From IMG/VR virus record IMGVR_UViG_3300032116_000017: DNA of 51,108 bases; one strand, given 5' to 3'. Shown here piece after piece: positions 1,369 through 44,665 of the stretch. Origin of the DNA: an uncultured virus (IMG/VR IMGVR_UViG_3300032116_000017). Taxonomy: Duplodnaviria; Heunggongvirae; Uroviricota; Caudoviricetes. The notes under the pieces were generated by a model. The model had not been told where the DNA came from, searched no databases, and saw only the letters and a list, made by a program, of their open reading frames with translations. A program made the translations under genes and the position numbers. Position 1 is the stretch's first letter. Each line of letters opens with the position of its first letter.

Positions 1369-2261
1369 CAAACATTTTAGATGGAAGAATCGTATCAGGT
1401 CAAATTTTATCCAATATCAAAGATAAAATCGAAGGTCACATAGAAAAAAGCCAATCAAGATTAGGATATCAAATTTCAAAACCATCTATGGCGATAGTTC
1501 TTGTTGGAAATAATCCAGCATCTGAGTCTTATGTCAATGGAAAAACAAAAGCTTGTGAAAAAGCTGGAATAAACTATAGTGTTATTAGATTTCCAGAAAA
1601 AATAACCTCATTTGATCTTTTAGAAGAAGTAAAAAGATTAAATAAGTCTTCTTATGATGGATTTATTGTTCAACTTCCATTACCAGAACACATTAAGTCG
1701 GATTCTATTATAAACGAGATAAGTGCATATAAAGACATTGATGGATTTCATCCTCTTAACTTTGGTAAAATGTCACTTGGTCAGAAGTCAATGAGACCAG
1801 CAACTGCTTATGGTATATTAAAACTAATCGAATGGTATGAAATTGACACTAAAGGAAAACATGTCGTAGTTATTGGTCGCTCTAATATTGTCGGGAAACC
1901 TATTTCTATTATGTTAGGTAACGACTTTAACATTGGAAGAGCTACCGTTACATCTTGTGATATAAACACTCCTAAAGAACTCCTAATTGAAGAAACTAAG
2001 AAAGCTGATATAGTAATTGTTGCAGTTGGAAAACCTGGTTTATTAACAGCTGATATGATTAAAGAAGGAGTGGTTGTGATTGATGTAGGTATCAATAGAT
2101 TAGAATCTGGTAAATTAGTTGGTGATTGTGATTTTGATTCTATTTCTAAGAAGGCTTCTTGGATTACTCCAGTACCAGGTGGTGTTGGACCAATGACTAT
2201 ATCTGGTTTGATTTTGAATACTTATGAGGCTTGGAAGATGAAAAATTTTATTGAAGAATAA
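1356..2261 (+). CDS. folD: bifunctional methylenetetrahydrofolate dehydrogenase/cyclohydrolase
   Basis: YVNGK, VQLPLP, KDIDGFHP, GRSNIVGKP, DVGIN, TPVPGGVGPMT. Confidence 0.97.
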   Translation: MQTLANILDGRIVSGQILSNIKDKIEGHIEKSQSRLGYQISKPSMAIVLVGNNPASESYVNGKTKACEKAGINYSVIRFPEKITSFDLLEEVKRLNKSSYDGFIVQLPLPEHIKSDSIINEISAYKDIDGFHPLNFGKMSLGQKSMRPATAYGILKLIEWYEIDTKGKHVVVIGRSNIVGKPISIMLGNDFNIGRATVTSCDINTPKELLIEETKKADIVIVAVGKPGLLTADMIKEGVVVIDVGINRLESGKLVGDCDFDSISKKASWITPVPGGVGPMTISGLILNTYEAWKMKNFIEE

Positions 2262-2680
2262 TGGGATTTATAGGAGCAACAACTTTATTAAATCATGATG
2301 TATCTATTAACCCAAGATCAAAGATGACTTGGTCTCAAAAAATAGATGATATATCCTCTTACTTAGAGAATCCAGATTTTGAGGTTATAAACCCAACCGT
2401 AAAAATATGTGAGTATTTTAAAGATAAGATAGGATATTGTCTACCATCATCAAGTTTCTTTGTTATTGATAATAGTAGATTAGAGATTTTTAATCAACCA
2501 TTAAATTGCTTAGATTTTTATAACTATGATGATTTAATAAAATATTTAAGTGATGAGAAGAAAACTATTTATGTAAGTAAGATTACATTAAACTTTGGTA
2601 GAATATACAAAGCTTTTATCTATGAGATAGATAATTTACCTAATATAAGAAATCATAAATTAGAAAAAATAGGAATATGA
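2261..2680 (+). CDS. hypothetical protein with C-terminal RxxKLxxI tag
   Basis: Coupled ORF ending IRNHKLEKIGI. Confidence 0.7.
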   Translation: MGFIGATTLLNHDVSINPRSKMTWSQKIDDISSYLENPDFEVINPTVKICEYFKDKIGYCLPSSSFFVIDNSRLEIFNQPLNCLDFYNYDDLIKYLSDEKKTIYVSKITLNFGRIYKAFIYEIDNLPNIRNHKLEKIGI

Positions 2681-2934
2681 AAGTAAAGTGTTTATCTAAT
2701 GAAAGTTGGGATCTTCTTCACAATTTGCGTGATAAACTAACGATTGGTAAAATATATGATGTTATAAAAATTGAACAAATACCATTCTCACCACATAGAT
2801 ATGATGATCCAAGTGGTCCCTTTTATAGAATAAAATGTGATAATGGAGAAATAAAACACATTGATGCAAATAGATTTCGCGAATTGACTATGTATGAAAA
2901 AAGAGAATTAAAATTGAAAGATTTAGGTATATGA
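2677..2934 (+). CDS. small beta-rich (SH3-like) protein with C-terminal tag
   Basis: LTIGKIYDV; ends KRELKLKDLGI; ATGA coupling. Confidence 0.7.
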   Translation: MKVKCLSNESWDLLHNLRDKLTIGKIYDVIKIEQIPFSPHRYDDPSGPFYRIKCDNGEIKHIDANRFRELTMYEKRELKLKDLGI

Positions 2935-3164
2935 GAAAGTTTTATAAAATAGTTTGTATAAATAATAAACCAATTCCCGGTAGTAGCGAAAGAACTCAAA
3001 GCCTCACGGAAGGAAAAGTCTATCAAACTTATGACAATCCAGATTATAGAGATGTTTGTGTTGTAAATGATAAAGGAATAGAAGTAAACTATTCGAGTTC
3101 TAGATTTATAACATTAGAAGAATTTAGAGAAAATAAATTAAATAAAATATTAGAATGCAGTTAA
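2931..3164 (+). CDS. small beta-rich (SH3-like) protein with C-terminal tag
   Basis: LTEGKVYQT; ends FRENKLNKILECS. Confidence 0.7.
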   Translation: MRKFYKIVCINNKPIPGSSERTQSLTEGKVYQTYDNPDYRDVCVVNDKGIEVNYSSSRFITLEEFRENKLNKILECS

Positions 3165-3493
3165 TACTTGGAATATTATTTGGAACATTAGCACAAATAC
3201 TTGTTTTTTTTCAGATACAAGGTAGTTTGAAATATCCTTTCTTACAGAATAATCAATGGATAGTTCTGCTTTCTGGTGTTCCAATAACTTGGCTTTTTGT
3301 AGAATCGGTAAAATATATTTACGATTGGAGTGGAGGTCAACTTTGGCCCGGAAGACTTATCGGATTTTCAATTGGTATAGTTGTCTTCACAGCGATGTCA
3401 ATTATATTATTTGGAGAGGGAATAAGTGCTAAAACTGGAATTTGTTTAGTTCTATCAGTTTTGATTCTACTTATACAAATTTTTTGGAAATGA
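3155..3493 (+). CDS. small 4-TM membrane protein (SMR/DMT-like topology)
   Basis: 112 aa, four hydrophobic segments, LFGE before the last helix. Confidence 0.6.
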   Translation: MQLILGILFGTLAQILVFFQIQGSLKYPFLQNNQWIVLLSGVPITWLFVESVKYIYDWSGGQLWPGRLIGFSIGIVVFTAMSIILFGEGISAKTGICLVLSVLILLIQIFWK

Positions 3494-3519
3494 ATATAAA
3501 TAAAAAATAAAATAATATT

Positions 3520-5293: not shown

Positions 5294-5587
5294 GTGATTA
5301 ACAATTGGATTATAAAGGATAGAATAAAAAGTGGTATAATTTCATTTGAGGTTGGTGATGAAATAGTTATTTTTTGGAGAAAAGGAAATGGCTATCCGAG
5401 AACTATAATTGATAATAAAATATACGTTATCAGTAGAATTGAATCTGATAATTTATTTTTAAACGAAAAAAATATTATAAACTCAAAACATTTTCCATTA
5501 AGAGTGCATAAAACCTATATGATACCTCTGTATGTTTTAAGAGAAATCAAATTAAATAGTCTGTTTGACGAAACAAAGTTAATATAA
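5294..5587 (+). CDS. hypothetical protein with C-terminal tag
   Basis: GTG start; LREIKLNSLF near the end. Confidence 0.65.
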   Translation: MINNWIIKDRIKSGIISFEVGDEIVIFWRKGNGYPRTIIDNKIYVISRIESDNLFLNEKNIINSKHFPLRVHKTYMIPLYVLREIKLNSLFDETKLI

Positions 5588-5619: not shown

Positions 5620-6798
5620 ATGGGAAAATTAGCCTTAAATTTTATTTGTAAAGATGAATCACATGTCATCGAAAAAATGCTAGAAAGTAATAAATCCATA
5701 GTTGATTTAGTAGTTTGTAATGACACTGGTTCAACTGATGGTACTCAAGATATAATTAAAAACTGGGGAGAAAAAAATAACATTCCAACTTACGTTTTTG
5801 AAAGACCGTTCGATGATTTCGAAAAAAGTAGAAATCATGCGATGCAGAAACTTAAAGATGTTGTTGCTGAACTAAAATGGAATCCAAATGATGTACATGG
5901 TTACTGGTGTGACTGTGATGAAACGGTTGTCATTGATCCTAAATTCAATAAAAATCAATTCAAAAATGACCTTTATATGATTAACACTTATATCGGTCAA
6001 ATGAAATATACCAGAAATACATTCTTTAGAGTATCACTTCCCTTTAAATGGTATGGACCCGTTCATGAGTTCATTGTATGTGATAAGAAAGATATTACTT
6101 CTGGTTTAGCTGAAGGTATCCATGTTGATGTTAAAATGACAGGTAATTCCTGGAAAGGTAATATCCCTACAAAATACAAATCACATGCCTTTGTTTTAGA
6201 GAAATATATTGATGAGAACAGACAAGATCCTCGTTGGATATTCTATACAGCTCAGTCTTATCACGACTCAGCTTCTATCCCGGATAATAAAGAGGAAAAT
6301 GAAGAAAGATTAAGAAGAGCTCTTAAATATTATAGAGAGAGAACAAATAGATTCGATGGATATGCGGAAGAAAACTACTATTCTCAATACAGAATCGGTA
6401 CTATTATGAGAGTTTTAGAAGATCCGTGGCACTTGACTATGCAGGAATGTCTCAAAGCTTACTCAATGGATCCAGTTAGGGGAGAATCTATCAAAACTAT
6501 CATAGACCATTACTTACAAGTTGGTGAATGGAATTTAGCTTATCTATATACAAAATTTGCTAAAGAAAATTTTCACGGCAAAAATCCTTACCCATCAAGA
6601 TTACTCTTTGTCGATGAGGCACTTTACGCTTGGAAGTTTGCAGAAGCTCACGCAGCCGCGAGTTTCTACACTGGTAGAATGGAAGAAGCTAAGGGTAATT
6701 ATCAGGAAATTCTAAAAGCAATGAAAACTCATCCACAGTGTTTCACACCAGAAGATATAAAAAAGGTTGAAATGAACGGTCAGTTTTTTAACAGATGA
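5620..6798 (+). CDS. GT2-like glycosyltransferase with C-terminal TPR-like helices
   Basis: ICKDE, DTGSTDGT, DCDE (DxD), GPVHE; helical C-terminal half. Confidence 0.85.
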   Translation: MGKLALNFICKDESHVIEKMLESNKSIVDLVVCNDTGSTDGTQDIIKNWGEKNNIPTYVFERPFDDFEKSRNHAMQKLKDVVAELKWNPNDVHGYWCDCDETVVIDPKFNKNQFKNDLYMINTYIGQMKYTRNTFFRVSLPFKWYGPVHEFIVCDKKDITSGLAEGIHVDVKMTGNSWKGNIPTKYKSHAFVLEKYIDENRQDPRWIFYTAQSYHDSASIPDNKEENEERLRRALKYYRERTNRFDGYAEENYYSQYRIGTIMRVLEDPWHLTMQECLKAYSMDPVRGESIKTIIDHYLQVGEWNLAYLYTKFAKENFHGKNPYPSRLLFVDEALYAWKFAEAHAAASFYTGRMEEAKGNYQEILKAMKTHPQCFTPEDIKKVEMNGQFFNR

Positions 6799-7274
6799 TT
6801 AAGTTAATAGTTGCAATATCAAAGAATAGAGTTATTGGTGATTCGAATAAACTAATTTGGAATTTACCAGCAGACTTAAAACGATTTAAGGAAATCACAA
6901 CAGGTCATCCAATTGTTATGGGTAGAAAAACCTATCAATCAATTGGAAGACCTCTTCCTAATCGTAGAAACATTATTATAACAAGAGATGAGAGTTATGA
7001 AGTTGATGGATGTGAAGTCGTCAATTCTGTTGAAGAAGCTCTTTTACTTACGAATAATGATTGCTTTATAATTGGTGGTGGTGAAATTTACAAACAAACC
7101 TTACATATTGCTGACCAGATTTATATGACCGAAGTTCATGAAGAATTTGTTGGTGATACTACTTTTCCAGAACTAACTGCTGTTTGGTATGTGTCTAAAG
7201 AAGAAAAGTTCTTAGCAGACAAAAAAAATAATTACAACTATTCATTTATTTTTTATGAAAAATTTGAATTCTAA
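6795..7274 (+). CDS. folA: dihydrofolate reductase
   Basis: W-x-LPADLKRF, MGRKT, GRPLPNR, IIGGGEIY, GDTTFP. Confidence 0.97.
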   Translation: MIKLIVAISKNRVIGDSNKLIWNLPADLKRFKEITTGHPIVMGRKTYQSIGRPLPNRRNIIITRDESYEVDGCEVVNSVEEALLLTNNDCFIIGGGEIYKQTLHIADQIYMTEVHEEFVGDTTFPELTAVWYVSKEEKFLADKKNNYNYSFIFYEKFEF

Positions 7275-7827
7275 AGGTAAACTTATAATGATAATCGGGG
7301 CACCTGCTTCTGGTAAATCAACATTGGCTTCTGAAGTTCATACTGAACTAAAGAAAAGAAATAAGAACTCTATTTTTATTAGTGAAGTCGCTACAGATTT
7401 TATTGCAGAATATGGAATACCAAACACACCAATTGATCAGATGGTTATATTTTATAAACAATTGAATAAAGAAACAATGTTTTTAGATTCAAAGGAGTTC
7501 ATTGTTTGTGATTCGAGTTCTATCTTAAACTATTTTTACTTTAGAAAATTATTCCCTGAGAAGTTATCCAATAAAGATATTGCTTCTATTAATCATCTTC
7601 AAAAAGAAATATTAAAACATATTAATACAATTGACTATATCTTTTATGTACCACCTATGATAGATATCGATACTAATGATGGTATTAGGTATCACAAAGA
7701 AGATGATATAAAGAGATTAGATAGATGGATTAAGTCTTATTTAGAATTAGAAAATATAAATCATACTGATTTATCTGAAGTGAAAGTAAATGATAGATTA
7801 GATTTTATTTTAAAAGAATTACTATAA
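7255..7827 (+). CDS. P-loop kinase/ATPase, NadR/AAA_28-like
   Basis: GAPASGKST, SEVA, VCD, DGIR. Confidence 0.75.
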   Translation: MKNLNSKGKLIMIIGAPASGKSTLASEVHTELKKRNKNSIFISEVATDFIAEYGIPNTPIDQMVIFYKQLNKETMFLDSKEFIVCDSSSILNYFYFRKLFPEKLSNKDIASINHLQKEILKHINTIDYIFYVPPMIDIDTNDGIRYHKEDDIKRLDRWIKSYLELENINHTDLSEVKVNDRLDFILKELL

Positions 7828-8148: not shown

Positions 8149-8174
8149 AAGGTATATATTAAAAAAAATTAGAC

Positions 8175-8230
8175 AAAAAAGAAACCCAAGAAAATCATTC
8201 TTGGGTCGGTCTAAGAATACTATTCTTAGA
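8175..8230 (-). terminator. intrinsic terminator preceded by a second hairpin
   Basis: ACCCAAGAA/TTCTTGGGT (8184-8206) with minus-strand T tract, plus TCTAAGAAT/ATTCTTAGA (8210-8230). Confidence 0.65.
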
Positions 8231-20820: not shown

Positions 20821-21071
20821 TGAAAGTGGGTGAAATATACGTCTTTATTGGAGAATCTGTAAAAGATGAACACTTTAAAAACTTTACTTATGGTAATAAT
20901 TATAAAATAAGTTCAATTTCAACTTTAGCTGATACGGATATTTATGGAGACTCGGTAGCTGTTCTATTTGAAAATTTTAGATATGGTTGTTTAGATTATC
21001 ATTTTAATACGTATTTTATAACTTTAGAGGATTTTAGAAATACAAAGATTAAAAAAATTATTTATGATTGA
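20820..21071 (+). CDS. small beta-rich protein with C-terminal tag
   Basis: FTYGNNYKI; FITLEDFRNTKIKKII, similar to the 2931 ORF end. Confidence 0.7.
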   Translation: MKVGEIYVFIGESVKDEHFKNFTYGNNYKISSISTLADTDIYGDSVAVLFENFRYGCLDYHFNTYFITLEDFRNTKIKKIIYD

Positions 21072-23281: not shown

Positions 23282-23740
23282 ATGATAAACTTTGAAGAAC
23301 TTAATATTTTTTTTGATGAGATAATCGAATCAGATAATCAAATATTTCAACTCGACTACAAAGAAACGTTTAAAGAAAACGGAGAAGTCAAGACCAATAT
23401 AGTTATTGATAGAATAAATCTTCAGCCAATAGAAAATATCTATAATTTATTTGAAACTGGCGAAATTGAAAAAATAAATTATTACCCTAAAACTTTTTTT
23501 AAGAAATTATTTAATATTAAAAGATTTAAATATTTCAGCATTGACGGTAGTGAATCAGATTTTATTCTATGTTCAGAAAAAACATCAAAAATTATTAAAA
23601 CTAATTGTAGAGTCTATAATTACCCAATTGAGAACAAAATTATCTTTGGTAAAAGAGGAAGACTAATTTATTACAAAAACCGTGATAAGTTTTTTGCAAA
23701 AGTCGATTCTAAAAATTTTAAAATATACCTAATTGATTGA
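23282..23740 (+). CDS. hypothetical protein
   Basis: 152-aa ORF. Confidence 0.6.
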   Translation: MINFEELNIFFDEIIESDNQIFQLDYKETFKENGEVKTNIVIDRINLQPIENIYNLFETGEIEKINYYPKTFFKKLFNIKRFKYFSIDGSESDFILCSEKTSKIIKTNCRVYNYPIENKIIFGKRGRLIYYKNRDKFFAKVDSKNFKIYLID

Positions 23741-24671
23741 GTATCAAATCTCTTTCAATCGATTTATCTTCAAACTCTTTGTAATCGTACCAGTTTCTTG
23801 ATGCAGAATCATCAACTATCAGTACTCTTAAAAAACCAGAGGAAATCGAGGAACTTTCAACAGCATAATCTTTACCTTTGGTGAGTCTGTCTGTACCGTA
23901 ATTAGTTTTTAAATCAACCTTACTTCTTATTTTAACACCAACAGATATGGTCATTAAACTCTTGATTTTATTTTGCAAAGTATCAATAATAAAATCAGAG
24001 TTTAATTTTCTAAAATCAATATTACTACTTTCAATATATCCCACTAGTGAGTTCAATAAATTTCGAGTTACTTCAATTTCTACTTTTGGAACTAAATCTA
24101 ATGATAGACAAACTTCAGAGTAATATTTAATTCTACTTAAATACTTATCTTGTTGAGTAAATTTTTTATAAATATCGTATTCTGATTTCTCACAGGTATC
24201 AATATCATTTGAAATTATCCAATTTAAAATTGGCACAAATACAATATCAAATCCTTCAATTACCTCATTAGACCTTCTTCCCCAAATCTTTCTACCTCTG
24301 TAGGTGTATCCAGGTTTAGATACCCAGCGTCCATTTAATAATCTATCAAATTTTTGTGAATCTTCTTCTATTAACTTTTTAAAAGAATTAGATGTTTTAT
24401 TTTTCAACCAATTTTTGAACCTTTCGTTCTTAGTTTTCTCAATAAGAATTTGCTTTAATTCTTTAAAGTTAATGGCTTGAATTGTTGAAAAATCATTGTC
24501 AGATAAATTCTTTTGAAAGTTGTAAAACTCTGCAAATTTATCAAGTCCAATATTTCTCATGACTTGAAAACTAACAAGTCCATTTTCATAATCAGAAATA
24601 GTAGGTAGTGAATCTTTAGCTTCTTGATAAATTCTAAGATTCTCTTTAATAAATTCGTAAGTAAATTTCAT
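23718..24671 (-). CDS. hypothetical protein ending in SH3-like module plus C-terminal tag
   Basis: LTKGKDYAV...ERDLILNQLGIF. Confidence 0.7.
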   Translation of the reverse strand: MKFTYEFIKENLRIYQEAKDSLPTISDYENGLVSFQVMRNIGLDKFAEFYNFQKNLSDNDFSTIQAINFKELKQILIEKTKNERFKNWLKNKTSNSFKKLIEEDSQKFDRLLNGRWVSKPGYTYRGRKIWGRRSNEVIEGFDIVFVPILNWIISNDIDTCEKSEYDIYKKFTQQDKYLSRIKYYSEVCLSLDLVPKVEIEVTRNLLNSLVGYIESSNIDFRKLNSDFIIDTLQNKIKSLMTISVGVKIRSKVDLKTNYGTDRLTKGKDYAVESSSISSGFLRVLIVDDSASRNWYDYKEFEDKSIERDLILNQLGIF

Positions 24672-26006: not shown

Positions 26007-26289
26007 ATTTTAATATTTTTTGTATTTTTAATTGTCTTTTGAAATTCCTTATACCTTTATTAATTTCTTTTAGGTTTAATTCATCAGACTCCGTTGTTGT
26101 AAAAGATTCATCACAAGAATCACACTGATAATTTGTAAAATTAACGCAGATTTTTTTATTTATTTTACCAACATAAAAATCATTATATTCAGTAACCAAT
26201 TGAGCAATATCTCCACAAACCGGACAGTCTAATTTATTTTTCACTTTTGGTTTTATTTTTATAACCCCAGGGACAGTTACGACATCCAC
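26005..26289 (-). CDS. zinc-ribbon protein (YgiT/MqsA N-domain-like) with C-terminal tag; start uncertain
   Basis: CPVCG...CDSCDESF; ends KRQLKIQKILK. Confidence 0.65.
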   Translation of the reverse strand: MDVVTVPGVIKIKPKVKNKLDCPVCGDIAQLVTEYNDFYVGKINKKICVNFTNYQCDSCDESFTTTESDELNLKEINKGIRNFKRQLKIQKILK

Positions 26290-30291: not shown

Positions 30292-31943
30292 AATATTTAA
30301 AATTATTTGAAGGATTTGAATCTGAAAAGCTTACTAAGACTTTAGGATATGTTGATAAAAAAAGCAGAGATGAAGTCTTACAAAGACTCAGAGAGATATG
30401 TAATAGTATAGATTTTCCATTTTCTCAATTAAATGATTCTTACTTTCAATACTTACCTTATCAAAAGGCACTCAATTTACAATATGTAGGTGAGAAAATT
30501 CCCTGTAAAGCAACATCAAGTTCAGTATTTGATAGACAATTTGCAGTACCGGGAGAAAAATGTGAAGATGGTAAAATTAAAAGAATGTGGGGTAGTCGTC
30601 AAAGAGTTGTTGAGTGCCCTAATTGTAATGGCACAGGAATTGAACCTGAAAAACAGGAAGTAAAGTTACTTAAATTTTGGTTCACAAAAGAAGGAGAAAT
30701 GGTGACAATCACTGGTGTTGATAATAGGTATAAACCCGAAGTCAAATCTAAGTTAAAGGCATTTAGCAAAAACATAAGTGATTATGTTGTAGTAGGTGAG
30801 ACGGTTACAAGAAGAGGTGATGTTTCATTTTTGCAGAATGGTGATTTTGTTTTGGCTAAGTTAAATTCATCAAGTGATGAAATTATTTGTTATGTGTTAA
30901 AAGAAGGTAGAAGATTGTATTTAATACAAGACAGACATGACGGTGATACACCAAATGCTGATTATAGAAGCATCGCAAACTACTCTTGGAATATAACAGA
31001 TGGTGATTTTATAACATTAAAGAAAGTTGAAGTAAAAGTTAGAAAAAGTGATGATGAAGATGATGAAGATGAAATAGATCCATTTTCATTTAATAGACAA
31101 ATAAATTTTGGATACAGAGGGACAATCAGTTTTGATAGGTATCAAAGAGGAGTTGAGAAGTTAGTAGGCAAAGCTCACTTTGCACTCATTTTCAATTTAA
31201 GTTCATTGAAGACTACAGAATTTAAGACAAAAAGAGAAATTGGTGCAGAAAGAGTTGAGATTAAATCAGGTTCTAGATTAACCGTAAAGGACTCGGATAT
31301 AAAGAAGGCTAACATAGAAAGATATATGAAAGAAATAGCTCTAAGAAGTGATATAGTTTCAGATATCAGCAATTTACCAAAAGTAGTTAAACGAATTATC
31401 GGAGGTGAGAATGTTTTTTTTCTAATGATATACAACTCAAGATTTTTTGATAGTTTAAATAGATTAGCAGAATATTACATAGAAGCTCTCAAAGAAGGAA
31501 AAGATTCGGATTATCATAAAAACAGACTATCTACTTATATTGGTGATAGATATAAATCCATTACAAATAGTAATGTATTAATCTCAAATAATACTAAGTA
31601 CATTAAAGACTCTATTAGAAAAGATGATTTTAAAGATTACTTAAAAATATTTGAAGGCTTAGAAAATTTAAGTAAGAAAATATATCAAAAAGTGACAACA
31701 ATGCCTATAGAGTGTGTTGAAGATTTAGATATTATAAAGGCTAAATTAGAGTCAATAAGACAGATTTTCAGATCAAACAGGTATAATTTTGATAAAATGG
31801 ATTATTTTATTGATAGTTTGACTACATCATCAAATCCTGAAAATGCTCTAAGGTACTTAACAAATCACTATTATATAAGAGATTATAAGATAGAGATTCT
31901 TAAAGGAATTGAGCAAGCTAACAGAGTCTTAGATAGGTTCTAA
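30288..31943 (+). CDS. hypothetical protein, N-terminal motif plus DnaJ-type Zn finger
   Basis: MKYLKLFEGFES; CEDG...CPNCNGTG. Confidence 0.75.
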   Translation: MKYLKLFEGFESEKLTKTLGYVDKKSRDEVLQRLREICNSIDFPFSQLNDSYFQYLPYQKALNLQYVGEKIPCKATSSSVFDRQFAVPGEKCEDGKIKRMWGSRQRVVECPNCNGTGIEPEKQEVKLLKFWFTKEGEMVTITGVDNRYKPEVKSKLKAFSKNISDYVVVGETVTRRGDVSFLQNGDFVLAKLNSSSDEIICYVLKEGRRLYLIQDRHDGDTPNADYRSIANYSWNITDGDFITLKKVEVKVRKSDDEDDEDEIDPFSFNRQINFGYRGTISFDRYQRGVEKLVGKAHFALIFNLSSLKTTEFKTKREIGAERVEIKSGSRLTVKDSDIKKANIERYMKEIALRSDIVSDISNLPKVVKRIIGGENVFFLMIYNSRFFDSLNRLAEYYIEALKEGKDSDYHKNRLSTYIGDRYKSITNSNVLISNNTKYIKDSIRKDDFKDYLKIFEGLENLSKKIYQKVTTMPIECVEDLDIIKAKLESIRQIFRSNRYNFDKMDYFIDSLTTSSNPENALRYLTNHYYIRDYKIEILKGIEQANRVLDRF

Positions 31944-32327: not shown

Positions 32328-32552
32328 ATGAAATTCAATAAAGACTTAGTATATTTCAAAGAAGATGAGGTGTTTTATGATGGCATCAAATTAGCCATCA
32401 CTCGACAAAATATACAAGATTATACTTTACAAACTGACATGTCAGGAGAATCGATAATAATCTACTATTATAAAAAAGAACTTCAACAAATAAGAGATAA
32501 GCAACTAGAAGCACTACTAAATGATAGAGAAGGACAAGATAAAGTGGATTAA
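32328..32552 (+). CDS. hypothetical protein with C-terminal tag
   Basis: IRDKQLEALL. Confidence 0.7.
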   Translation: MKFNKDLVYFKEDEVFYDGIKLAITRQNIQDYTLQTDMSGESIIIYYYKKELQQIRDKQLEALLNDREGQDKVD

Positions 32553-32739
32553 AGATGAGAATCCTGATGAGACAGGGACCTATGGGCAAATTTACTATAA
32601 AGAAGTAAGACTTGACCTCTCAGTTGAAACAATACAAAGTATTTATTACCGTTCTTTTACAGAAGAAGTGGTTGGAACAATAATCTCACAGTCATATAAA
32701 AGATGTCTTAGGATACACAGAGAGAGAAAAATTACTTAA
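32521..32739 (+). CDS. paralogue-like neighbour of 32328; C-terminal tag apparently frameshifted
   Basis: IYYKEVRLDLSVETIQ vs VFYDGIKLAITRQNIQ; REKLLNDLL lies in another frame. Confidence 0.65.
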   Translation: MIEKDKIKWIKDENPDETGTYGQIYYKEVRLDLSVETIQSIYYRSFTEEVVGTIISQSYKRCLRIHRERKIT

Positions 32740-32750
32740 TGATTTATTAA

Positions 32751-32993
32751 ATGAAAGAAATACTAAATAAATTTGGTGGTAGATTTATAACACACCTACC
32801 CACAACATACAACTCAACTACATACATGCCATCATTTACAATAAAAGATACATTTGATGGGGATGTTTTTACAATACAGATTGATTCATTAGCAGCTGAT
32901 CCTGAAATCATTTTAGAAAATGTACTGCGTGAAAAAATAATAAATAAGAGAGAAATAAAAATTGATTCTATTATTGATGGAACAACGCCTTAA
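32751..32993 (+). CDS. hypothetical protein with C-terminal tag
   Basis: KREIKIDSII. Confidence 0.7.
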   Translation: MKEILNKFGGRFITHLPTTYNSTTYMPSFTIKDTFDGDVFTIQIDSLAADPEIILENVLREKIINKREIKIDSIIDGTTP

Positions 32994-38170: not shown

Positions 38171-38187
38171 AATTTATATATTATTTT

Positions 38188-38664
38188 TTAAGATTTATTT
38201 TTCGTATAACAGATATCAATTAGTTTGAATGTCTTATGCCAAAGTGCAGGGTGTCTCTTATTCCAATTCTCAATCTCTTCGATCTTAGATATAAAGTTAG
38301 AGATCTCACCAATTCCGTGTCCAGTTGGTCTAACAGGGAAAGGTCTTTGATCAGTTATTGGTTCATTATGTGGTTTAATCCAACATGCTATAGTTCCCAA
38401 ATGATATCCTTCACCAAGTAAATATTCATGTAGTGAAATAAAATTATCGATGTTTTGATAAAGTGGTAAATCTTCAGAAGTTAACATATTATCTTCATCT
38501 CCAATAAGAATTAAAACTCTATCTTCTGAACTACCTAATGGATCCGGTTGATACACCTCAACCTCAACTGGTATATCTTCATCAGAGAAATCTCTAAGAA
38601 AATCTTCAACCATGTCTTTTACAACTTCAGTTGATTCAAAAAGTTTCCAATTTTTAATCCTCAT
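38188..38664 (-). CDS. array family paralogue
   Basis: MRIKNWKLFES; EDFLRDFSD; YLLGEGY. Confidence 0.8.
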   Translation of the reverse strand: MRIKNWKLFESTEVVKDMVEDFLRDFSDEDIPVEVEVYQPDPLGSSEDRVLILIGDEDNMLTSEDLPLYQNIDNFISLHEYLLGEGYHLGTIACWIKPHNEPITDQRPFPVRPTGHGIGEISNFISKIEEIENWNKRHPALWHKTFKLIDICYTKNKS

Positions 38665-39184
38665 AATCTTCTTTATCTAATTTATTTAAGAACTCTAAAA
38701 CATCCGGAGTCACATAATCAAAATAAACCGACCTAAATGATTTTTTGATTTCCCTACCGTTTTCCTGTTCAGATTTTTTAACCATATCAATAAAGTCTCT
38801 AAAGTGGTCATAATCATGACGATATTCAATTCCATCTTCTAAAAAATCAGTATGCCAGTTTTCCATTTCTAAAGTAAATACAATAATCGTTCTTAATACC
38901 CAGCCATCATCTACTAAATAGCTATTTAGTGAAGTTAAATTATCGATATTTCCATAAAGATCTAAATCACATACTAAATCATAAAAAGTTCCAATTCCAA
39001 CCTCTACGGATTCATAAAATCCTTCAGCGACCATATCCGAAGTTGACATCCCCTCTGGTCTTTTATCTTCGACTCTAACTTTAACTGGAATATCATTATC
39101 AGAGAAATCTCTAAGAAAATCCTCTATCATGGTTTTATTAACCCCAACAGATTCAAATAACCTATATGATTTTAAGTATCTCAT
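38654..39184 (-). CDS. array family paralogue, closest to 38188
   Basis: MRYLKSYRLFES; EDFLRDFSD.DIPV; LY.NIDN..SL. Confidence 0.8.
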   Translation of the reverse strand: MRYLKSYRLFESVGVNKTMIEDFLRDFSDNDIPVKVRVEDKRPEGMSTSDMVAEGFYESVEVGIGTFYDLVCDLDLYGNIDNLTSLNSYLVDDGWVLRTIIVFTLEMENWHTDFLEDGIEYRHDYDHFRDFIDMVKKSEQENGREIKKSFRSVYFDYVTPDVLEFLNKLDKEDYED

Positions 39185-39233
39185 ATCATTATATATTAAA
39201 TAAACAAACTAAAACTTCAAACTATAAAATTCT

Positions 39234-39443
39234 ATGAAAGAGTGGTTAATCGGAACTCCTATTGGTGAAATGACAGTTGGTATTGATTTTTTCAAGACAG
39301 TAACAATAAAAAAGACTAAAGTTGTCGAAAATACTGTTTTTGTCACTTTAGATGATGGTCAAACATTTTCAATCTGGGAAAGAGATTTTACACTAATACA
39401 AAAAATTATTAGAGATTACAAAATTAATCAAATATTGTCATAA
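39234..39443 (+). CDS. small protein with C-terminal tag
   Basis: Ends IRDYKINQILS; AAAC-N17-TATAAA at 39202-39228. Confidence 0.7.
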   Translation: MKEWLIGTPIGEMTVGIDFFKTVTIKKTKVVENTVFVTLDDGQTFSIWERDFTLIQKIIRDYKINQILS

Positions 39444-39477
39444 AAAAAACCCACTCGATTAAAGTGGGTTTCTTTTT
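39442..39477. terminator. bidirectional intrinsic terminator
   Basis: AAAAAAAACCCACT...AGTGGGTTTCTTTTT. Confidence 0.8.
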
Positions 39478-39498
39478 ATATTTTTTAGTTATCTAAAA

Positions 39499-40104
39499 TC
39501 AGTGTTCTAATCTATAAACTAATTTTCTAGCCATTACAATAACAGCTAAAGCAATTGCCGTGATTATAAAAGAAGCAATCATAGGCATAACACCCACCAT
39601 ACCCATAGAACCAAATAATAAAGATAAAACTAATGCCAACGGAACCCCACAAGCATAAATATTTACCGCAAAAATATTTTGTAAAATAGCTAACACAGTT
39701 TGCACAATTCCCGAATCTTTAGGTAAACTACCTACTAAATTACCATCACCGGCCTCCTGTTCCATATGAGACTCATAACTTTTACCTGAATGTTCCTCAA
39801 CTGATTTTTCAATTTGTCTTCCAAATTTTAATTCAATCATCTTCTTAACATCACTAAAAGTGAATGAACCTATAGGACCAAACATCTTTTCTAAGTTATC
39901 TACAACTTTATCGACTTGATTATCAACTACATTTGCAATTGAATCACATAACTTTTCAATTGCCTCTACAAATTGATTATACTTATCACCTAAATAATCA
40001 ACTAAATCACCTATCTTATTTTTAATCCAGTTCCAAATGTCACCAAAAACACCTTCATTCATTGGCTCGTAATTGAAATTCTCATAAGTTTTAATATATT
40101 TCAT
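39499..40104 (-). CDS. N-terminal-motif protein with C-terminal TM helices
   Basis: MKYIKTYENF...MNEG; long hydrophobic C-terminus. Confidence 0.8.
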   Translation of the reverse strand: MKYIKTYENFNYEPMNEGVFGDIWNWIKNKIGDLVDYLGDKYNQFVEAIEKLCDSIANVVDNQVDKVVDNLEKMFGPIGSFTFSDVKKMIELKFGRQIEKSVEEHSGKSYESHMEQEAGDGNLVGSLPKDSGIVQTVLAILQNIFAVNIYACGVPLALVLSLLFGSMGMVGVMPMIASFIITAIALAVIVMARKLVYRLEH

Positions 40105-40148
40105 AACTCAATTTTTATTTTTACTCTTTATATATTATTTCTAAAAAA

Positions 40149-40829
40149 TTAATATTTAACGATAGGACCCCCTGAAATCTCTCTTAAACCGATTGTTGTT
40201 TCAAATTGATCAATGACCGATTTCCACTTTCTTCCATCAGATGTTAAGTCCCACGAGTTTTTATTATTCTCTGAATATAAAGGTCTAATCATTTTAACAA
40301 AATTACTCAGAAAAGGAGATATTCTATTCATATCACCAGTCTTACAAATTCTAATCATTTCTTTTAATGAAGTAGTTAGCTTATCTTGACTTAACGAATT
40401 AGACTTTAATATCTTACTATAACTATTAACAATAGGATTCAAATTCTTCTCTAAGAAATTAGGAAAATCTTTACCTAAATCCATCACACCAGATGATTGA
40501 GATGCTGACCCACTTGAAGAAACTAAATCCAGTGACAATCTTTTAATAACAAATGAACCAATCTTTAAATTAGAATCTTCAAATTCTTTAACCACATCAC
40601 TAATGTAATTCTTAGCCTCTTTTAATTCACTAAAACATAAATCAAGAAGCATCACACTTCCACTTGCTAAGACTAAAGTAACGGTATAAACCGAACTACC
40701 TGCCTCCTTTTTATCTATAATCTTTACAGAATATCCAGAAACTTCTTGTGTCTGTGACATAGAATCATCTTTAGAGGATGTGTAAAAACTACCTACTTTA
40801 AACTCTTCAAATATTTTTAACCTTTTCAT
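40149..40829 (-). CDS. hypothetical protein with N-terminal motif
   Basis: MKRLKIFEEF. Confidence 0.75.
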   Translation of the reverse strand: MKRLKIFEEFKVGSFYTSSKDDSMSQTQEVSGYSVKIIDKKEAGSSVYTVTLVLASGSVMLLDLCFSELKEAKNYISDVVKEFEDSNLKIGSFVIKRLSLDLVSSSGSASQSSGVMDLGKDFPNFLEKNLNPIVNSYSKILKSNSLSQDKLTTSLKEMIRICKTGDMNRISPFLSNFVKMIRPLYSENNKNSWDLTSDGRKWKSVIDQFETTIGLREISGGPIVKY

Positions 40830-40860
40830 AAATTATATATTACTTATCAAACCTTAAAAA

Positions 40861-41766
40861 CTAATTAGTAACCCATCTTAAAAAAACACACGTATCATAA
40901 CCGGGATTCTCACCACCACCATCATACCAGTTAGCCCTAACCTCAAACTTAGGAGTATCTTTATCTCTACCATCCGATTCCCACTGAGGTTTAAATCCCC
41001 ACTGACTAAGATAGTCTGAAACAACATCTATAACTTCTTGAACATCTGACCACTCAAAGCCACGATTCTCATCACGATCTCCCCACAAAACAGCAGATGA
41101 CCTTTCTTTAACCTCTTTCTTTAACTCTACTTGTATAACATTTTCACTAAGAACCCAAACACCCGAACGAATACTCTGAAAATCCAACTCTAATAACATA
41201 TCTCCTACAGTAGACTTAATCTCATCCGTTTCACTCTGAGTAAAACTCTCATTGAAAGTTTTAAAGAGATTCTTATCACTAAAAAATAATTCTATCTGCT
41301 CTACACGCTTACCCTCACTAATAGCTATATCTAACCTCTCAATAGTAACTGGCCATTGGTCTAAAAGAAAACGGTCTGGATCTCCAACATATCCACACTT
41401 ATTACAACGGGTAAAAACTCCCGGATAATTATCCTCAAAATCATCTGATAAACAATTAGGACAACCCACATAATGCTGCCACATATCACTCCAAAACCAA
41501 GACTCTTTCATTAAAAATAAACCAGAACTACTTAGATAATCTATAACATCTAATATACAATCTTCTACCTTAAACTTAAGACCATGTGTCTTTCCAATAC
41601 TTACTTTAACATACTCAACTGGAGTTCCACCTAAATGTGACCAAGAACCGTCACTTACTTTAACATTAATATCATTATCAGAATAATCTAATAACATATC
41701 ACTTATAATAGATAAATCATAATCCTTACTTTCATTAAATAAATTATATGTCTTTAACCTTTTCAT
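40861..41766 (-). CDS. two-unit fusion of array family domains (start revised to 41766)
   Basis: MKRLKTYNLFNES...SDMLLDYSD with CPNC/CNKC insert; internal LFKTFNES...GDMLLELDF. Confidence 0.8.
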   Translation of the reverse strand: MKRLKTYNLFNESKDYDLSIISDMLLDYSDNDINVKVSDGSWSHLGGTPVEYVKVSIGKTHGLKFKVEDCILDVIDYLSSSGLFLMKESWFWSDMWQHYVGCPNCLSDDFEDNYPGVFTRCNKCGYVGDPDRFLLDQWPVTIERLDIAISEGKRVEQIELFFSDKNLFKTFNESFTQSETDEIKSTVGDMLLELDFQSIRSGVWVLSENVIQVELKKEVKERSSAVLWGDRDENRGFEWSDVQEVIDVVSDYLSQWGFKPQWESDGRDKDTPKFEVRANWYDGGGENPGYDTCVFLRWVTN

Positions 41767-41767
41767 C

Positions 41768-42223
41768 TTAAAATCCGAAACCATATTTAATTTTATTGGA
41801 TTGAAACTCATCAAATCCCTTTTCAAACCACATTTCTATTCTAGAAGTGTATTGATTAGTAACAGCACTGCCAGTTGAATTCACATAAGGACCTTCGTCT
41901 CCATACTTAGGAGGCTGACCATGAGTTCCCTTATTAAAATTCCAATCAAATCCTTCTGATGACAAATACTCTCTTATAGGTGTCATATACTCTTTAATAT
42001 CTTCATATGTAAAAGAATCAATTACACGACCTTTGTAGGTGTTATAGGATGTTGCCTTACTAATTCCTATTCTAATATACTCCTTACTATCCATTCTACG
42101 AATAACACAATTAGTAGTATAATCTAAATCACTTATTTCTAATAACATATCCTTTATATTACTAACAATATCTAATGTATCATCAAATGACTCAAATAAC
42201 TTAAATGATTTAATTCTTTTCAT
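41768..42223 (-). CDS. array family paralogue
   Basis: MKRIKSFKLFES; KDMLLEISD; YLSSEGF. Confidence 0.8.
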   Translation of the reverse strand: MKRIKSFKLFESFDDTLDIVSNIKDMLLEISDLDYTTNCVIRRMDSKEYIRIGISKATSYNTYKGRVIDSFTYEDIKEYMTPIREYLSSEGFDWNFNKGTHGQPPKYGDEGPYVNSTGSAVTNQYTSRIEMWFEKGFDEFQSNKIKYGFGF

Positions 42224-42271
42224 TAAGTTATATATTAAAAATTACTGAGATTAATTCTGATTCACCGAAAG

Positions 42272-42308
42272 AAATTTTTTTGACCCTTTAAAAATTTTTT
42301 TGACCCTT
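42272..42308. repeat. 17-bp direct repeat, 20-bp period
   Basis: AAATTTTTTTGACCCTT at 42272 and 42292. Confidence 0.85.
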
Positions 42309-42374
42309 ACGTCGAAGACGAGTTAAAAATTTTTCCAACAGGAATTCTTACAACCCACCACCTCTAAACCTAAA

Positions 42375-42803
42375 CTACTTAACCACCTCTTTAGTAAAGA
42401 TAAGAATAAAATTTTCTAAACCACAGTTTCTATCAACCACTTCTTCAATATTATGTTCACTATAATAATACAACTCACCATCTTTAACATAACCATCGAT
42501 ATCTCCGAACTCCATATCATATCCATCATAGAAAATAAATTCAACCTGGTGCGACCAACCTTCACTTTTCATAAAAGCTATCATATCCTCTACGACATCT
42601 TTAATATCACTAAAATAAAATACCTTACCATTATTTAAAATAAATGATAATCTATCACTACTTTTATGATATGAAAAGGGTACAAACTTACTAAAATAAA
42701 ATCCTTTATCAGTCAATTCTAATGACATATCTTTAATAACAGATACCAATTCACTATTATCCTCTACACTCTCAAATAACTTAAATGATCTAATCCTTTT
42801 CAT
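42375..42803 (-). CDS. array family paralogue
   Basis: MKRIRSFKLFES; KDMSLELTD; FMKSEGW. Confidence 0.8.
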   Translation of the reverse strand: MKRIRSFKLFESVEDNSELVSVIKDMSLELTDKGFYFSKFVPFSYHKSSDRLSFILNNGKVFYFSDIKDVVEDMIAFMKSEGWSHQVEFIFYDGYDMEFGDIDGYVKDGELYYYSEHNIEEVVDRNCGLENFILIFTKEVVK

Positions 42804-43192
42804 CTTATAAACACCATTTCTATTTTACTACTAACATTATCGAATTGATAACTACCCGACGTAGATACAATAGGAACACCATTATAAGCCAGTGTGCCTT
42901 TATCCTTATGCCATTTAAAACCCTCAGATTCTAAATACTCTATAATAGGCTCTATAACATCTTTAATATCATTCCAACTATAAGAAGGTTTAAAACCATA
43001 ATCCTCTTTTCTAATTGCTCTTTTTGATAATTTAACAACAATAGCCTCATCATTTCCCCACAAACCAGGAACAAATGCCCACTTACTATCAATATCTAAA
43101 AAATCTAACTCTAATAACATATCCCTTACAGTAGATATAATCTCCTCGACATTATAACTAGACTCAAACAAACGAAATGACTTAATTCTCAT
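42800..43192 (-). CDS. array family paralogue
   Basis: MRIKSFRLFES; RDMLLELDF; YLESEGF. Confidence 0.8.
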   Translation of the reverse strand: MRIKSFRLFESSYNVEEIISTVRDMLLELDFLDIDSKWAFVPGLWGNDEAIVVKLSKRAIRKEDYGFKPSYSWNDIKDVIEPIIEYLESEGFKWHKDKGTLAYNGVPIVSTSGSYQFDNVSSKIEMVFIR

Positions 43193-43243: not shown

Positions 43244-43591
43244 ATGAATAACACACTAACTCAATACCAACATAAAACACTACAAGAGATTAACTCTAAT
43301 TATATCAAAGACCTATTCAGATTCTTCTCATATGAATATACACAAATGTATAAAGATCCTAATAGAATAAAAGAAGCCATAAATAAACAAATAGAAAGTC
43401 GAATGCACAATACTAATATGATACTAAACTGGAGAATAACTATAGATGGTCCTACACTATCCGAAGTAAGAGATACTACTATACACAATATACTTAATGA
43501 TGATACTAAAAGACATCCAATCAAAATAGAGTTTATGTTCCAACAATCTAAAGCGCTAAATATCGAAATATGTGAGTTTATAATAGAATGA
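43244..43591 (+). CDS. hypothetical protein with an internal copy of the tag
   Basis: EVRDTTIHNILND. Confidence 0.65.
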   Translation: MNNTLTQYQHKTLQEINSNYIKDLFRFFSYEYTQMYKDPNRIKEAINKQIESRMHNTNMILNWRITIDGPTLSEVRDTTIHNILNDDTKRHPIKIEFMFQQSKALNIEICEFIIE

Positions 43592-43608: not shown

Positions 43609-43818
43609 TTAATGAATCCCTAACTTCTTTAAGTTAATCTCCCTTAACTCTGCTTTAGTCGGCTTGGTCACATACCAACTATCATCTATTAAACTCTGAA
43701 CTTCTACCTTATCACATCTTAGACACCTTCTTCTAATTAAGATAAGTTGTCCTACTTTTAAGGACTGTCTAGTTGGAGTATAATACCAACGGTGGCGGAT
43801 TTTACAAAGCCATTTCAT
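43609..43818 (-). CDS. small Cys/His Zn-ribbon protein with C-terminal tag
   Basis: LCKIRHRW...RRCLRC; ends LREINLKKLGIH. Confidence 0.7.
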   Translation of the reverse strand: MKWLCKIRHRWYYTPTRQSLKVGQLILIRRRCLRCDKVEVQSLIDDSWYVTKPTKAELREINLKKLGIH

Positions 43819-43853: not shown

Positions 43854-44006
43854 GTCAGAATTGTGGTCGGAATCCTGTATTTAGGATGCAAAATTGGTTT
43901 AATTTATACAAAAAAGGGAACAGATTCTTGTATGGTTGTTTTTATTAATTACAGAAATCTGAACGGAATTTTGTAGGGGCTACAGGAAAAAGACCATATT
44001 TCTGTA
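43854..44006. repeat. cluster of degenerate 26-bp TACA(G/A)AAA...TTT(C/T)TGTA palindromes
   Basis: Copies at 43907-43932, 43950-43975, 43981-44006 and a weaker one at 43854-43879. Confidence 0.8.
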
Positions 44007-44136
44007 AGAATATGTGTTAAATCTATGTCATTCTATCAGTTTGTGTCAAAAGGGTTAAGTCAGCCATTACATTTACTTACATCTAAGCCATTTATTAAAA
44101 ATCAAAACTTGCGCAAATAAATCAGATATATATACT

Positions 44137-44325
44137 ATGAAAGAAGAAGATGAATTTGAAGAGGCCAAAAAAGAAAACAATAAGAGGTTTCGTATATGTG
44201 GCACGATAGATTATGACCTTTACAAGAGATTTGATAAGTATTGTGAAGAGGGTGGTTATGACCGCTCGAAGTTGCTTGAATTGATATTAAGAAAGTTTAT
44301 GGATGTTAAGGATGGCAAAGATTAA
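44137..44325 (+). CDS. ribbon-helix-helix (CopG-like) DNA-binding protein
   Basis: RFRICGTI strand, DLYKRFDKYCEE, GYDRSKLLELILRKF. Confidence 0.75.
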   Translation: MKEEDEFEEAKKENNKRFRICGTIDYDLYKRFDKYCEEGGYDRSKLLELILRKFMDVKDGKD

Positions 44326-44419
44326 GATTGACCGATGGCAGAATGACCTCGAGGAATATGGGCGTTGGAAAAGGTCTATGCGTCGTATTAAGAAGATAAT
44401 GCGTATATATGGAAAATAA
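44312..44419 (+). CDS. 35-aa basic micro-ORF (not in track)
   Basis: MAKIKIDRWQNDLEEYGRWKRSMRRIKKIMRIYGK; overlaps both neighbours. Confidence 0.55.
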   Translation: MAKIKIDRWQNDLEEYGRWKRSMRRIKKIMRIYGK

Positions 44420-44528
44420 TAAAAATGATTGGGAGCCACTCTCTAAGTCGTTTAGAGATAGTTTTAAGAATGGTTTGAGGACGAGGCGAGTTCAGAAGAT
44501 TATCCGCATCTTTAAGATTGATATATGA
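44409..44528 (+). CDS. 39-aa basic micro-ORF (not in track)
   Basis: MENNKNDWEPLSKSFRDSFKNGLRTRRVQKIIRIFKIDI. Confidence 0.55.
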   Translation: MENNKNDWEPLSKSFRDSFKNGLRTRRVQKIIRIFKIDI

Positions 44529-44665
44529 GTCATAGAATAAACTTTATAGAGAACCTTAGTCAAATGTACCGTAATAAGCGCCAGAGGTGGTTTATTAAGC
44601 GTAGGGTTTTGAGGATGGAGAAGTGTATTAGATTACTACAGAAAAATGAACGGATTTCTGTATAA
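44525..44665 (+). CDS. 46-aa basic micro-ORF (not in track)
   Basis: ATGA-coupled; MSHRINFIENLSQMYRNKRQRWFIKRRVLRMEKCIRLLQKNERISV. Confidence 0.5.
   Translation: MSHRINFIENLSQMYRNKRQRWFIKRRVLRMEKCIRLLQKNERISV
44637..44662. repeat. 26-bp imperfect palindrome
   Basis: TACAGAAAAATGAACGGATTTCTGTA. Confidence 0.95.

Follow-up and report, generated by a model that had tools for sequence, protein, structure and literature searches.

Why should many small and otherwise dissimilar proteins of one virus end in the same short peptide? This question is raised by a 51,108-nucleotide stretch of DNA from an uncultured virus of the Caudoviricetes (IMG/VR record IMGVR_UViG_3300032116_000017), called the window here, in which an initial annotation had noticed a shared amphipathic peptide, the C-terminal tag, at the ends of eleven predicted proteins. 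The analysis reported here suggests that this tag is probably a portable recognition helix carried by early accessory proteins and read in trans by one common partner. The window is a piece of the genome of a huge Bacteroidota phage with a G+C content of approximately 29%, and its gene set, obtained by greedy longest-ORF calling without a gene finder, comprises 89 open reading frames (ORFs) with 15,776 amino acids.

A six-frame scan of the window with the pattern R[DENQ]..[LI]..[LI] recovered all eleven peptides that had been listed, 2-11 residues before the stops of eleven ORFs, and the positions given for them in the initial annotation were found to be correct as the low coordinates of these ORFs and incorrect as sites of the motif. 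This loose motif begins within the last 20 residues of 11/89 window ORFs compared to a mean of 0.40 in composition-preserving shuffles of the window proteins, and none of 5000 shuffles reached eleven, which bears out the enrichment expected for the last 20 residues. Copies that are not C-terminal are about as frequent as expected (6 versus 4.2), while two stricter forms of the motif are found in nine C-termini versus 0.054 expected and, for R[DEN].K[LI]..[LI], in seven versus 0.034. The internal copy and the out-of-frame copy described before are present at 43469-43492 and 32723-32746, respectively; the "weaker variants" reported for micro-ORFs at 44.3-44.7 kb could not be retained, as their C-termini do not match the motif.

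The pattern was derived from the window and was re-tested on other records, of which the 175,894-bp IMG/VR contig G002 shares 18 kb with the window (its end overlaps the first 18 kb) and the others none. Window stretches of approximately 4 kb match the phage genomes LR745206.1 (634,780 bp) and LR756502.1 (642,428 bp) with 77-79% identity, and the window shows synteny with LR745206.1 from 539 to 600 kb, where 36 reciprocal best hits were obtained. In LR745206.1, 139 of 982 proteins are tagged compared to a shuffle mean of 3.6 (standard deviation 1.9, maximum 11 in 300 shuffles) and to four in a reversed-sequence control, and in 109 of these 139 tags the motif end lies 1-4 residues from the C-terminus. 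The tag was also found on 91/515 proteins of G003, an IMG/VR contig of 344,083 bp (36.6% G+C, estimated at 91% by CheckV; shuffle mean 1.9), and on 34/251 proteins of G002 (shuffle mean 0.81). The tag marks 12-18% of all proteins, and about one in eight in the window. For LR756504.1, of which 250 kb were sampled, a variant tag, R-[DEN]-x-I-I-x-[DE]-L-L-COOH, is enriched (18/460 ORFs versus 1.6 expected). There was no enrichment in the whole genome of Tenacibaculum phage pT24 (1 versus 1.1 expected), in 250 kb of Lak-A1 read with code 11 or with TAG as glutamine (1 or 2 versus about 1), in 450 kb of LR756501.1 (2 versus 2.1) and in 250 kb of LR756500.1 (2 versus 1.2). No cultured tag-bearing phage was found, and a literature search, including a term search in the main text of PMC7162821, returned no account of this tag.

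The tag has a well-defined anatomy, E-h-R-[DEN]-x-K-[LI]-x-x-[IL]-[LG]-x(1-4)-COOH, where h is hydrophobic, and can be extended to a consensus of approximately 13 residues, [ST]-x-x-E-h-R-[DEN]-x-K-[LI]-x-x-[IL]-[LG], placed 1-4 residues before the carboxyl end. Alignment of the 139 tags of LR745206.1 on the arginine (position 0) shows K or a hydrophobic residue at -4, S/Q/E at -3, E at -2 and I/L at -1, followed after the arginine by D/E/N at +1, any residue at +2, K at +3 (92/139), L/I at +4, N/K/D/E at +5, a polar residue at +6, I/L at +7 and L/G/I at +8, and then by 1-4 variable residues. These residues past the motif are I, D, N, K, E or the stop itself, and the two endings ...IL-x-x and ...LGI interchange among orthologues. 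On a helical wheel R0, K3, [LI]4, [IL]7, [LG]8 and h-1 would fall on one face, which may be taken as the contact surface. The arginine of the tag is encoded by AGA in 72% of the tags and in 75% of cases genome-wide, CGN codons being used as well, and its leucines use TTA, TTG and CTN at genome-wide rates. Codon choice within the motif thus matches that of the whole genome, and selection is directed at the peptide and not at the DNA, as had been proposed. Isoleucine and leucine swap freely and the third codon positions carry little information. Of those tags of LR745206.1 that end exactly with GI-stop, 14/19 run into the start codon of the following gene, as at 2677-2680 and 2931-2934 of the window, showing that the last two residues are partly shaped by this start-stop overlap; the link to the DNA level is confined to this exact ending.

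The protein bodies preceding the tag are mostly unrelated, in agreement with the initial annotation: after removal of the tag region, the 139 bodies of LR745206.1 form 137 BLAST clusters. An iterated profile seeded with the 77-residue protein of window ORF 2931-3164 detects a barrel-plus-helix module in 49/1808 proteins; it is present in 44/271 tagged proteins, the other 227 show none, and three barrel proteins carry no tag. Moreover, homologues without the tag exist in tag-less genomes for three tagged families. The AlphaFold2 (AF2) model of the 77-residue protein, with a mean predicted local distance difference test (pLDDT) score of 87.9, consists of five strands and a helix (residues 62-76) and gave weak SH3-domain matches in Foldseek (E ~1e-2); R66 and L70 are kept in 19/19 aligned sequences, i.e., the query and 18 homologues of 63-83% identity. 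The model of the 317-residue protein of ORF 23718-24671 (mean pLDDT 85.9) comprises an N-terminal helical domain, an SH3/Tudor-like barrel and the tag helix (303-313). Foldseek returned SH3/Tudor-like matches at E ~1e-2 only and nothing for the 250-residue N-terminal domain. The tag helix has pLDDT values of merely 57 and 41, and R307 and L311 are invariant in 39/39 aligned sequences (the query plus 38 homologues from the best 120 of 160 found). A helix that is conserved yet appears unanchored in the model would have the look of a docking motif. The five-strand barrel stands directly before the helix in the 44/271 tagged proteins found by the profile and in the two AF2 models. We conclude that the tag is portable; the barrel family is the largest group to carry it but does not account for it.

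Homologues do not freely lose the tag, a loss that the initial annotation had named as counter-evidence. Comparison of LR745206.1, G003, G002 and the remainder of the window by reciprocal best hits gave 48 pairs tagged on both sides and 12 tagged on one side. Judged from the printed C-termini, seven of these 12 are near-misses in which an I/L position is occupied by F, M, V or T, four are false pattern hits and one, a 731-residue versus a 415-residue protein, is a real difference. Orthologues keep the tag even at 26-40% identity, and it is retained on bodies that are 26-35% identical.

Next to the peptide itself, the tagged proteins share features of a class. In LR745206.1 they have a median length of 117 residues (range 66 to 731), and of the 138/139 scanned against Pfam, the remaining one crossing the locus edge, a single one passes the curated cut-offs (UVR motif). 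None of the 11 tagged window proteins lies above its curated cut-off, and ten small untagged window proteins have a Pfam family at E <= 1e-4 (Fisher test versus tagged 5e-5, with a denominator of 64 small untagged proteins including two unscanned). Tagged proteins evolve faster than small untagged ones, the median identity of LR745206.1/G003 orthologues being 35.9% (n=24) versus 48.9% (n=86; P = 1.5e-4). Their genes lie in tight arrays, with an upstream gap of <=5 nucleotides for 63% of tagged genes versus 37% of others, and they concentrate towards the ends of LR745206.1, none being located in the region 140-200 kb that contains terminase, portal and capsid genes.

Upstream of these terminase, portal and capsid genes AATATATA-like words occur. 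The shared word (A/T)ATATATA is found at 178,2xx, 193,1xx and 200,7xx of LR745206.1, 15-35 nucleotides ahead of the start codons, and is a candidate for the late promoter of this phage clade. Counting only genes with at least 40 nucleotides upstream, and with the late class judged by this promoter proxy, AATATATA precedes 1/28 genes with the C-terminal tag in LR745206.1 and 2/21 in G003, compared to 79/294 and 22/152 other genes. The word TAnnTTTG, known as the -7 element of Bacteroidetes sigma-A promoters (PMC6847099), shows the opposite distribution with 12/28 and 7/21 tagged versus 48/294 and 26/152 other genes (P = 0.0017 for LR745206.1 and P = 0.13 for G003). The description of the tagged proteins as early or middle proteins fits these counts, the late motif standing before 1/28 and the sigma-A element before 12/28 of their genes.

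A second tag is found at the N-terminus of other proteins, M-[KR]-Y-[IL]-K-x-F-x-x-F or, more loosely, with [FY] for the first F, on 16/89 window ORFs versus 0.2 expected and on 61/982 LR745206.1 proteins versus 2.0. In the window it occurs in a minus-strand cluster at 35453-43192 and in the ORFs 14455-15099, 15146-16504, 27357-28565, 28618-30291, 30288-31943, 48570-49250 and 50607-51101. This N-terminal tag resembles the capsid targeting sequence (CTS) of phage T4 with an [IL]-x-E site. Its genes have the candidate late word in 16/22 (LR745206.1) and 13/16 (G003) cases and TAnnTTTG in 1/22 and 1/16. The two tags avoid each other: no protein with both was seen among the 89 window ORFs, as had been stated before, and one each in LR745206.1, G003 and G002, compared to 2.0, 8.6, 5.3 and 3.3 expected (hypergeometric P of 0.097, 7.8e-4, 0.019 and 0.13, respectively). 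LR756501.1 carries the N-terminal tag on 29/708 proteins and lacks the C-terminal tag, showing that the two are separable systems. Of the "two-address code" suggested in the initial annotation, the two exclusive tags with different promoter classes stand, each as a putative address.

Could the tag be explained without a reader? Self- or cross-association, in which tagged proteins pair or bundle via the shared helix, would suit the mixture of acidic (E-2, D/E+1), basic (R0, K3) and hydrophobic residues on the conserved face, making self-complementary packing possible, and the tight gene arrays (gaps of <=5 nucleotides in 63% versus 37%). We nevertheless regard it as unlikely, since a stable coiled coil would normally need more than the approximately 1.5 heptads available, no evident use can be seen for bundles mixing over 100 unrelated proteins, and the tag helix of the 317-residue model is of low confidence without a packed surface. 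It might also be that there is no address at all and that the helix is the best-kept structural element of a single hyper-divergent family. The profile tying 44/271 tagged proteins to one barrel-plus-helix module, the same module at the end of the 317-residue protein and the confidently modelled helix of the 77-residue protein favor this, but 227/271 tagged proteins show no such module, tagged proteins range in length from 66 to 731 residues, one body has weak zinc-ribbon matches, three barrel proteins do without the helix and three tagged families are represented in tag-less genomes by untagged homologues, leaving also the single-family explanation improbable.

Amphipathic helices target MinD and FtsA to the membrane, and a tag bringing early proteins to the inner membrane would be in line with a C-terminal amphipathic helix containing basic residues in a phage that codes for M50 and PrsW membrane proteases. 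The invariant arginine, its near-obligate acidic neighbor and the polar positions +5/+6 point instead to a specific protein contact, and with a hydrophobic face of merely three or four residues membrane targeting seems very unlikely. Equally hard to favor is a capsid-loading signal by which the proteins would be packed into the head and injected, in the manner of the T4 CTS and of encapsulin cargo peptides. Portal and capsid genes of T4-like type are present in the phage, and diverse small proteins sharing just a short terminal peptide recall the T4 internal proteins (PMC3012670), but the late motif on 1/28 (LR745206.1) and 2/21 (G003) tagged genes speaks against it, and the N-terminal tag, with the late motif on 16/22 and 13/16 of its genes and mutually exclusive with the C-terminal one, suits this role better. 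Finally, a signal in DNA or RNA, e.g., a site of 3' processing or an element for translational coupling that is translated by coincidence, might be read from the tight coupling of tagged genes to their neighbors and from the GI-stop overlap in 14/19 cases. Synonymous codons used as genome-wide, the Ile/Leu swap, third positions with little information, and a motif that stays in frame at a varying distance to the stop with a DNA-level link in its last two residues only make such a signal extremely improbable.

A recognition helix on early proteins thus remains the preferred explanation, and we infer that a separate reader exists. LR745206.1 codes for a proteostasis set of two ClpP genes, a 701-residue double-AAA Clp ATPase, DnaK, DnaJ and GrpE, and further for a DUF2201_N metallopeptidase and for M50, PrsW, M16, M28 and M42 peptidases. 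The Clp ATPase has no N-domain, its first AAA module starting from approximately residue 85, and carries a VGF loop at 552, after the MTSN sensor; it has 72% identity to its counterparts in both G002 and G003. The promoter class of the ClpC and ClpP genes is ambiguous. By reading of the sequence it has a putative UVR-like middle motif, and it is taken to be a ClpP-docking ClpC-type unfoldase. Whole-record searches for Clp ATPase, ClpP, Hsp70 and DUF2201_N found all four in LR745206.1, in G003 and in LR756504.1 with its variant tag, the Clp ATPase being in each case the N-less form with VGF loop. Among the tag-less genomes, LR756501.1 has Hsp70, DUF2201_N and a Clp ATPase that appears ClpB-like by reading, its start being Clp_N-like and an xGF loop being absent, and has no ClpP; LR756500.1 has ClpP and DUF2201_N and neither Clp ATPase nor Hsp70; Lak-A1 has ClpP, Hsp70 and a weak DUF2201_N match and no Clp ATPase; and pT24 has none of the four. 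The pair of N-less VGF Clp ATPase and ClpP is therefore confined to the tag-bearing genomes among the seven compared. Of LR756504.1 and LR756501.1, whose terminases are about equally distant from that of LR745206.1 (42% and 43% identity), only the former has the tag, in its variant form, and the Clp pair. Moreover, of 28 IMG/VR Clp loci collected with a 62-residue piece of ClpC, the 14 with the N-less form of approximately 700 residues contain 11 tags in 363 ORFs (about 1.2 expected) and the 14 with other Clp ATPases one tag in 360 ORFs (about 1.3 expected). For Staphylococcus aureus ClpC, recognition of the C-terminal SsrA degron lies with the pore rather than with the N-domain (PMC12583610).

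We treat this association as a lead. The phage's own Clp protease, i.e., the N-less ClpC with its VGF ClpP-docking loop together with ClpP, is the most likely reader in that it takes the largest single share among the candidates, although as a specific identification it stays tentative. Under this reading early proteins would have their lifetime limited by the tag, which would act as a phage-private degron or as a delivery signal.

Several observations weigh against it. Two of the IMG/VR loci with other Clp ATPases have an N-less form as well, of 669 residues with an IGF loop, and 0 tags in 56 ORFs. The three tag-bearing and four tag-less genomes behind the association are interrelated, so that it might go back to one or two events, and the tag-less genomes other than pT24 were sampled for the tag over 250-450 kb each. 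In S. aureus, N-less ClpC is proteolytically inactive unless the middle domain is mutated as well (PMC12583610). The last 1-4 residues of the tag vary, whereas the SsrA end is fixed. A protein with a tag-like motif, F5, is kept beside the ClpC gene, which is odd for a mere substrate. Against a recognition helix in general, the helix in the model of the 77-residue protein has a high pLDDT of 87-95; it may lie against the barrel, in keeping with a structural role.

F5 (approximately 125 residues) belongs to a conserved string F3-F6-F5 followed by ClpC, found in LR745206.1 (421687-425329), in G002 (5751-9619) and in at least 12 IMG/VR loci (L160-L172); upstream of the ClpC of LR756504.1 the trio was not found. 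F3 has approximately 162 residues and, by reading, a CYTH-like start with an ExExK motif. F6, of approximately 196 residues, ends with an invariant C-terminal ...FLRDFLKNFKLA and is PTH2-like by ESM Atlas (score 0.93, the family being assigned to 21% of the members), which makes it less likely to be an adaptor. None of the three has a Pfam family, and the F6 profile found no PDB relative by sequence. Complex predictions of a 164-residue copy of F3 and of F6 (196 residues) with the tagged 77-residue protein scored 0.05 and 0.00 and gave no answer.

Other candidates for the reader were set aside. A MoxR protein with a VWA partner is not supported, no AAA_3-type protein being detected among 319 LR745206.1 proteins of at least 200 residues that were scanned. 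DUF2201_N occurs in three tag-less genomes too, Hsp70 is present in the tag-less LR756501.1 and Lak-A1, and the AAA protein of the window (18294-19364) has relatives in tag-less genomes and no PDB relative by sequence. The sliding clamp, one of the hubs suggested in the initial annotation, looks unlikely, as a fragment of the family B DNA polymerase ends with ...VVMDIFGGFK, a different tail of T4-like appearance without R-[DE]-x-K-[LI].

The tag thus sits on small, fast-evolving, early or non-late accessory proteins of one clade of huge Bacteroidota phages. As a more far-reaching possibility, on which we place somewhat less weight than on the Clp protease as reader, these phages may use a private lifetime code, in which more than 100 early proteins per genome would carry a degron helix, N-less ClpC and ClpP would clear the early proteome on schedule and late proteins would be directed to the capsid by the N-terminal tag. 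What is known of huge phages comes almost solely from metagenomes, and most of their genes are without annotation. A label present on 12-18% of the proteome allows unannotated proteins to be sorted, with no need for homology, into a class of early and fast-evolving proteins with a probably short life or shared location. If the tag is indeed a degron for a phage-owned Clp protease, this would be, as far as we know, the first case of a bacterial virus timing its own proteome with a private tag-protease pair, and it would provide a compact orthogonal degradation tag for the engineering of Bacteroidota. If it is a docking signal instead, its reader would be a central hub of the infection.

In the window, the first three tagged genes are neighbors on the plus strand. 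The tag at 2648..2671 belongs to ORF 2261-2680 (139 residues) and is followed by two residues (GI) and the stop, the tag at 2902..2925 to ORF 2677-2934 (85 residues), again with two residues and a GI-stop overlapping the start of the next gene, and the tag at 3126..3149 to ORF 2931-3164 (77 residues), with four residues before the stop. Further downstream on this strand, ORF 5294-5587 (97 residues) has its tag at 5540..5563, seven residues before the stop, and its orthologues in LR745206.1 and G003 are tagged too; ORF 20820-21071 (83 residues; tag 21036..21059, three residues before the stop) has no gene at the equivalent slot of LR745206.1. On the minus strand, the tag at 23730..23753 lies three residues before the stop of ORF 23718-24671 (317 residues), the tag at 26014..26037 two residues before that of ORF 26005-26289 (94 residues), whose body shows weak zinc-ribbon matches under the Pfam cut-offs, and the tag at 43621..43644 three residues before that of ORF 43609-43818 (69 residues). 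The remaining three are again on the plus strand: ORF 32328-32552 (74 residues; tag 32493..32516, 11 residues before the stop), with a tagged orthologue in LR745206.1; ORF 32751-32993 (80 residues; tag 32949..32972, six residues before the stop); and ORF 39234-39443 (69 residues; tag 39411..39434, two residues before the stop), with a tagged orthologue in G003.

The out-of-frame copy at 32723..32746 (plus strand) lies one frame off the 3' end of ORF 32521-32739, which itself ends untagged. To judge from the sequence, a one-base slip near the A-run at approximately 32697-32700 would yield a twelfth tagged protein, and the off-frame copy could reflect an assembly indel or a genuine frameshift. 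A further motif at 31878..31901 (plus strand), 13 residues before the stop of ORF 30288-31943 (551 residues), is borderline and was left out of the tag count.

Annotated genes of the window include those for FolD, DHFR, an acyl-CoA dehydrogenase, guanylate kinase and a Dam methylase, and furthermore HU, an Hc1-like protein, an M50 protease and an AAA ATPase. ORF 17721-18050 (plus strand, 109 residues) contains a fourfold tandem pentapeptide (IDGPV) and then EETK at its end. The minus-strand ORFs 46680-47027 and 47020-47430 are tandem paralogues with 44% identity over 139 columns (E 7e-32), the same first 12 residues and similar C-termini. LR745206.1 codes for proteins with type IX secretion C-terminal domains (CHU_C; 15115-17613, 25768-27966 and 578811-582428) and for TonB-dependent-receptor-like proteins (136722-138704 and 77454-80102), both being consistent with a Bacteroidota host, and its family B DNA polymerase is encoded in two parts by genes approximately 100 kb apart (130568-131992 and 232803-234344), the part with the pol domain having the tail of T4-like appearance.

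How does the tag compare to known terminal signals? The CTS of T4 is cleaved after loading. T4 internal proteins are a diverse set of small proteins sharing this short terminal sequence, which serves them as an address (PMC3012670). As in T4, a short terminal peptide is the sole common element of diverse, fast-evolving small phage proteins; unlike the CTS, which is N-terminal and present on few late packaged proteins, the tag is C-terminal, occurs on 12-18% of the proteins and avoids the late-promoter class, so that the N-terminal tag of the window is the better analogue. MuA-type tails are C-terminal Clp degrons, and degrons of the SsrA and MuA type are read by ClpX, ClpA or ClpC. With them the tag shares its shortness, its location at the extreme C-terminus and a cognate unfoldase and peptidase in the same genomes. 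The SsrA degron is recognized by the ClpC pore without involvement of the N-domain (PMC12583610), which would be a further likeness. Differences are that SsrA ends with a fixed non-polar ...LAA and a free carboxylate and is added by transfer-messenger RNA, whereas the conserved part of the tag is a helix with an invariant arginine and variable end residues, genome-encoded on more than 100 proteins, its role in degradation being putative.

The PIP box and the gp45-binding C-terminal tails of T4 are sliding-clamp tails. The tag resembles them by the spacing polar-x-x-hydrophobic-x-x-hydrophobic-hydrophobic near the C-terminus and by the presence of such tails on many partners of one hub, but it has no aromatic pair, with I/L at +7, L/G/I at +8 and F or Y at +8 in 7/139 tags, and none of the replication-type Pfam proteins in the LR745206.1 scans carries it. 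In the eukaryotic and archaeal ESCRT-III system, the MIM1 helix is read by the MIT domain of Vps4. Like the tag, MIM1 is a C-terminal amphipathic helix with conserved leucine and arginine on several proteins, and its reader is the N-terminal domain of an AAA ATPase; unlike in the MIM1/Vps4 pair, no MIT-like domain was found here. Finally, encapsulin cargo-loading peptides and the C-terminal helix of the P22 scaffolding protein dock varied cargo on a shell of HK97 fold. They share with the tag a short C-terminal peptide on varied proteins, and they differ from it in acting during shell assembly, whereas the tagged genes stand outside the late class.

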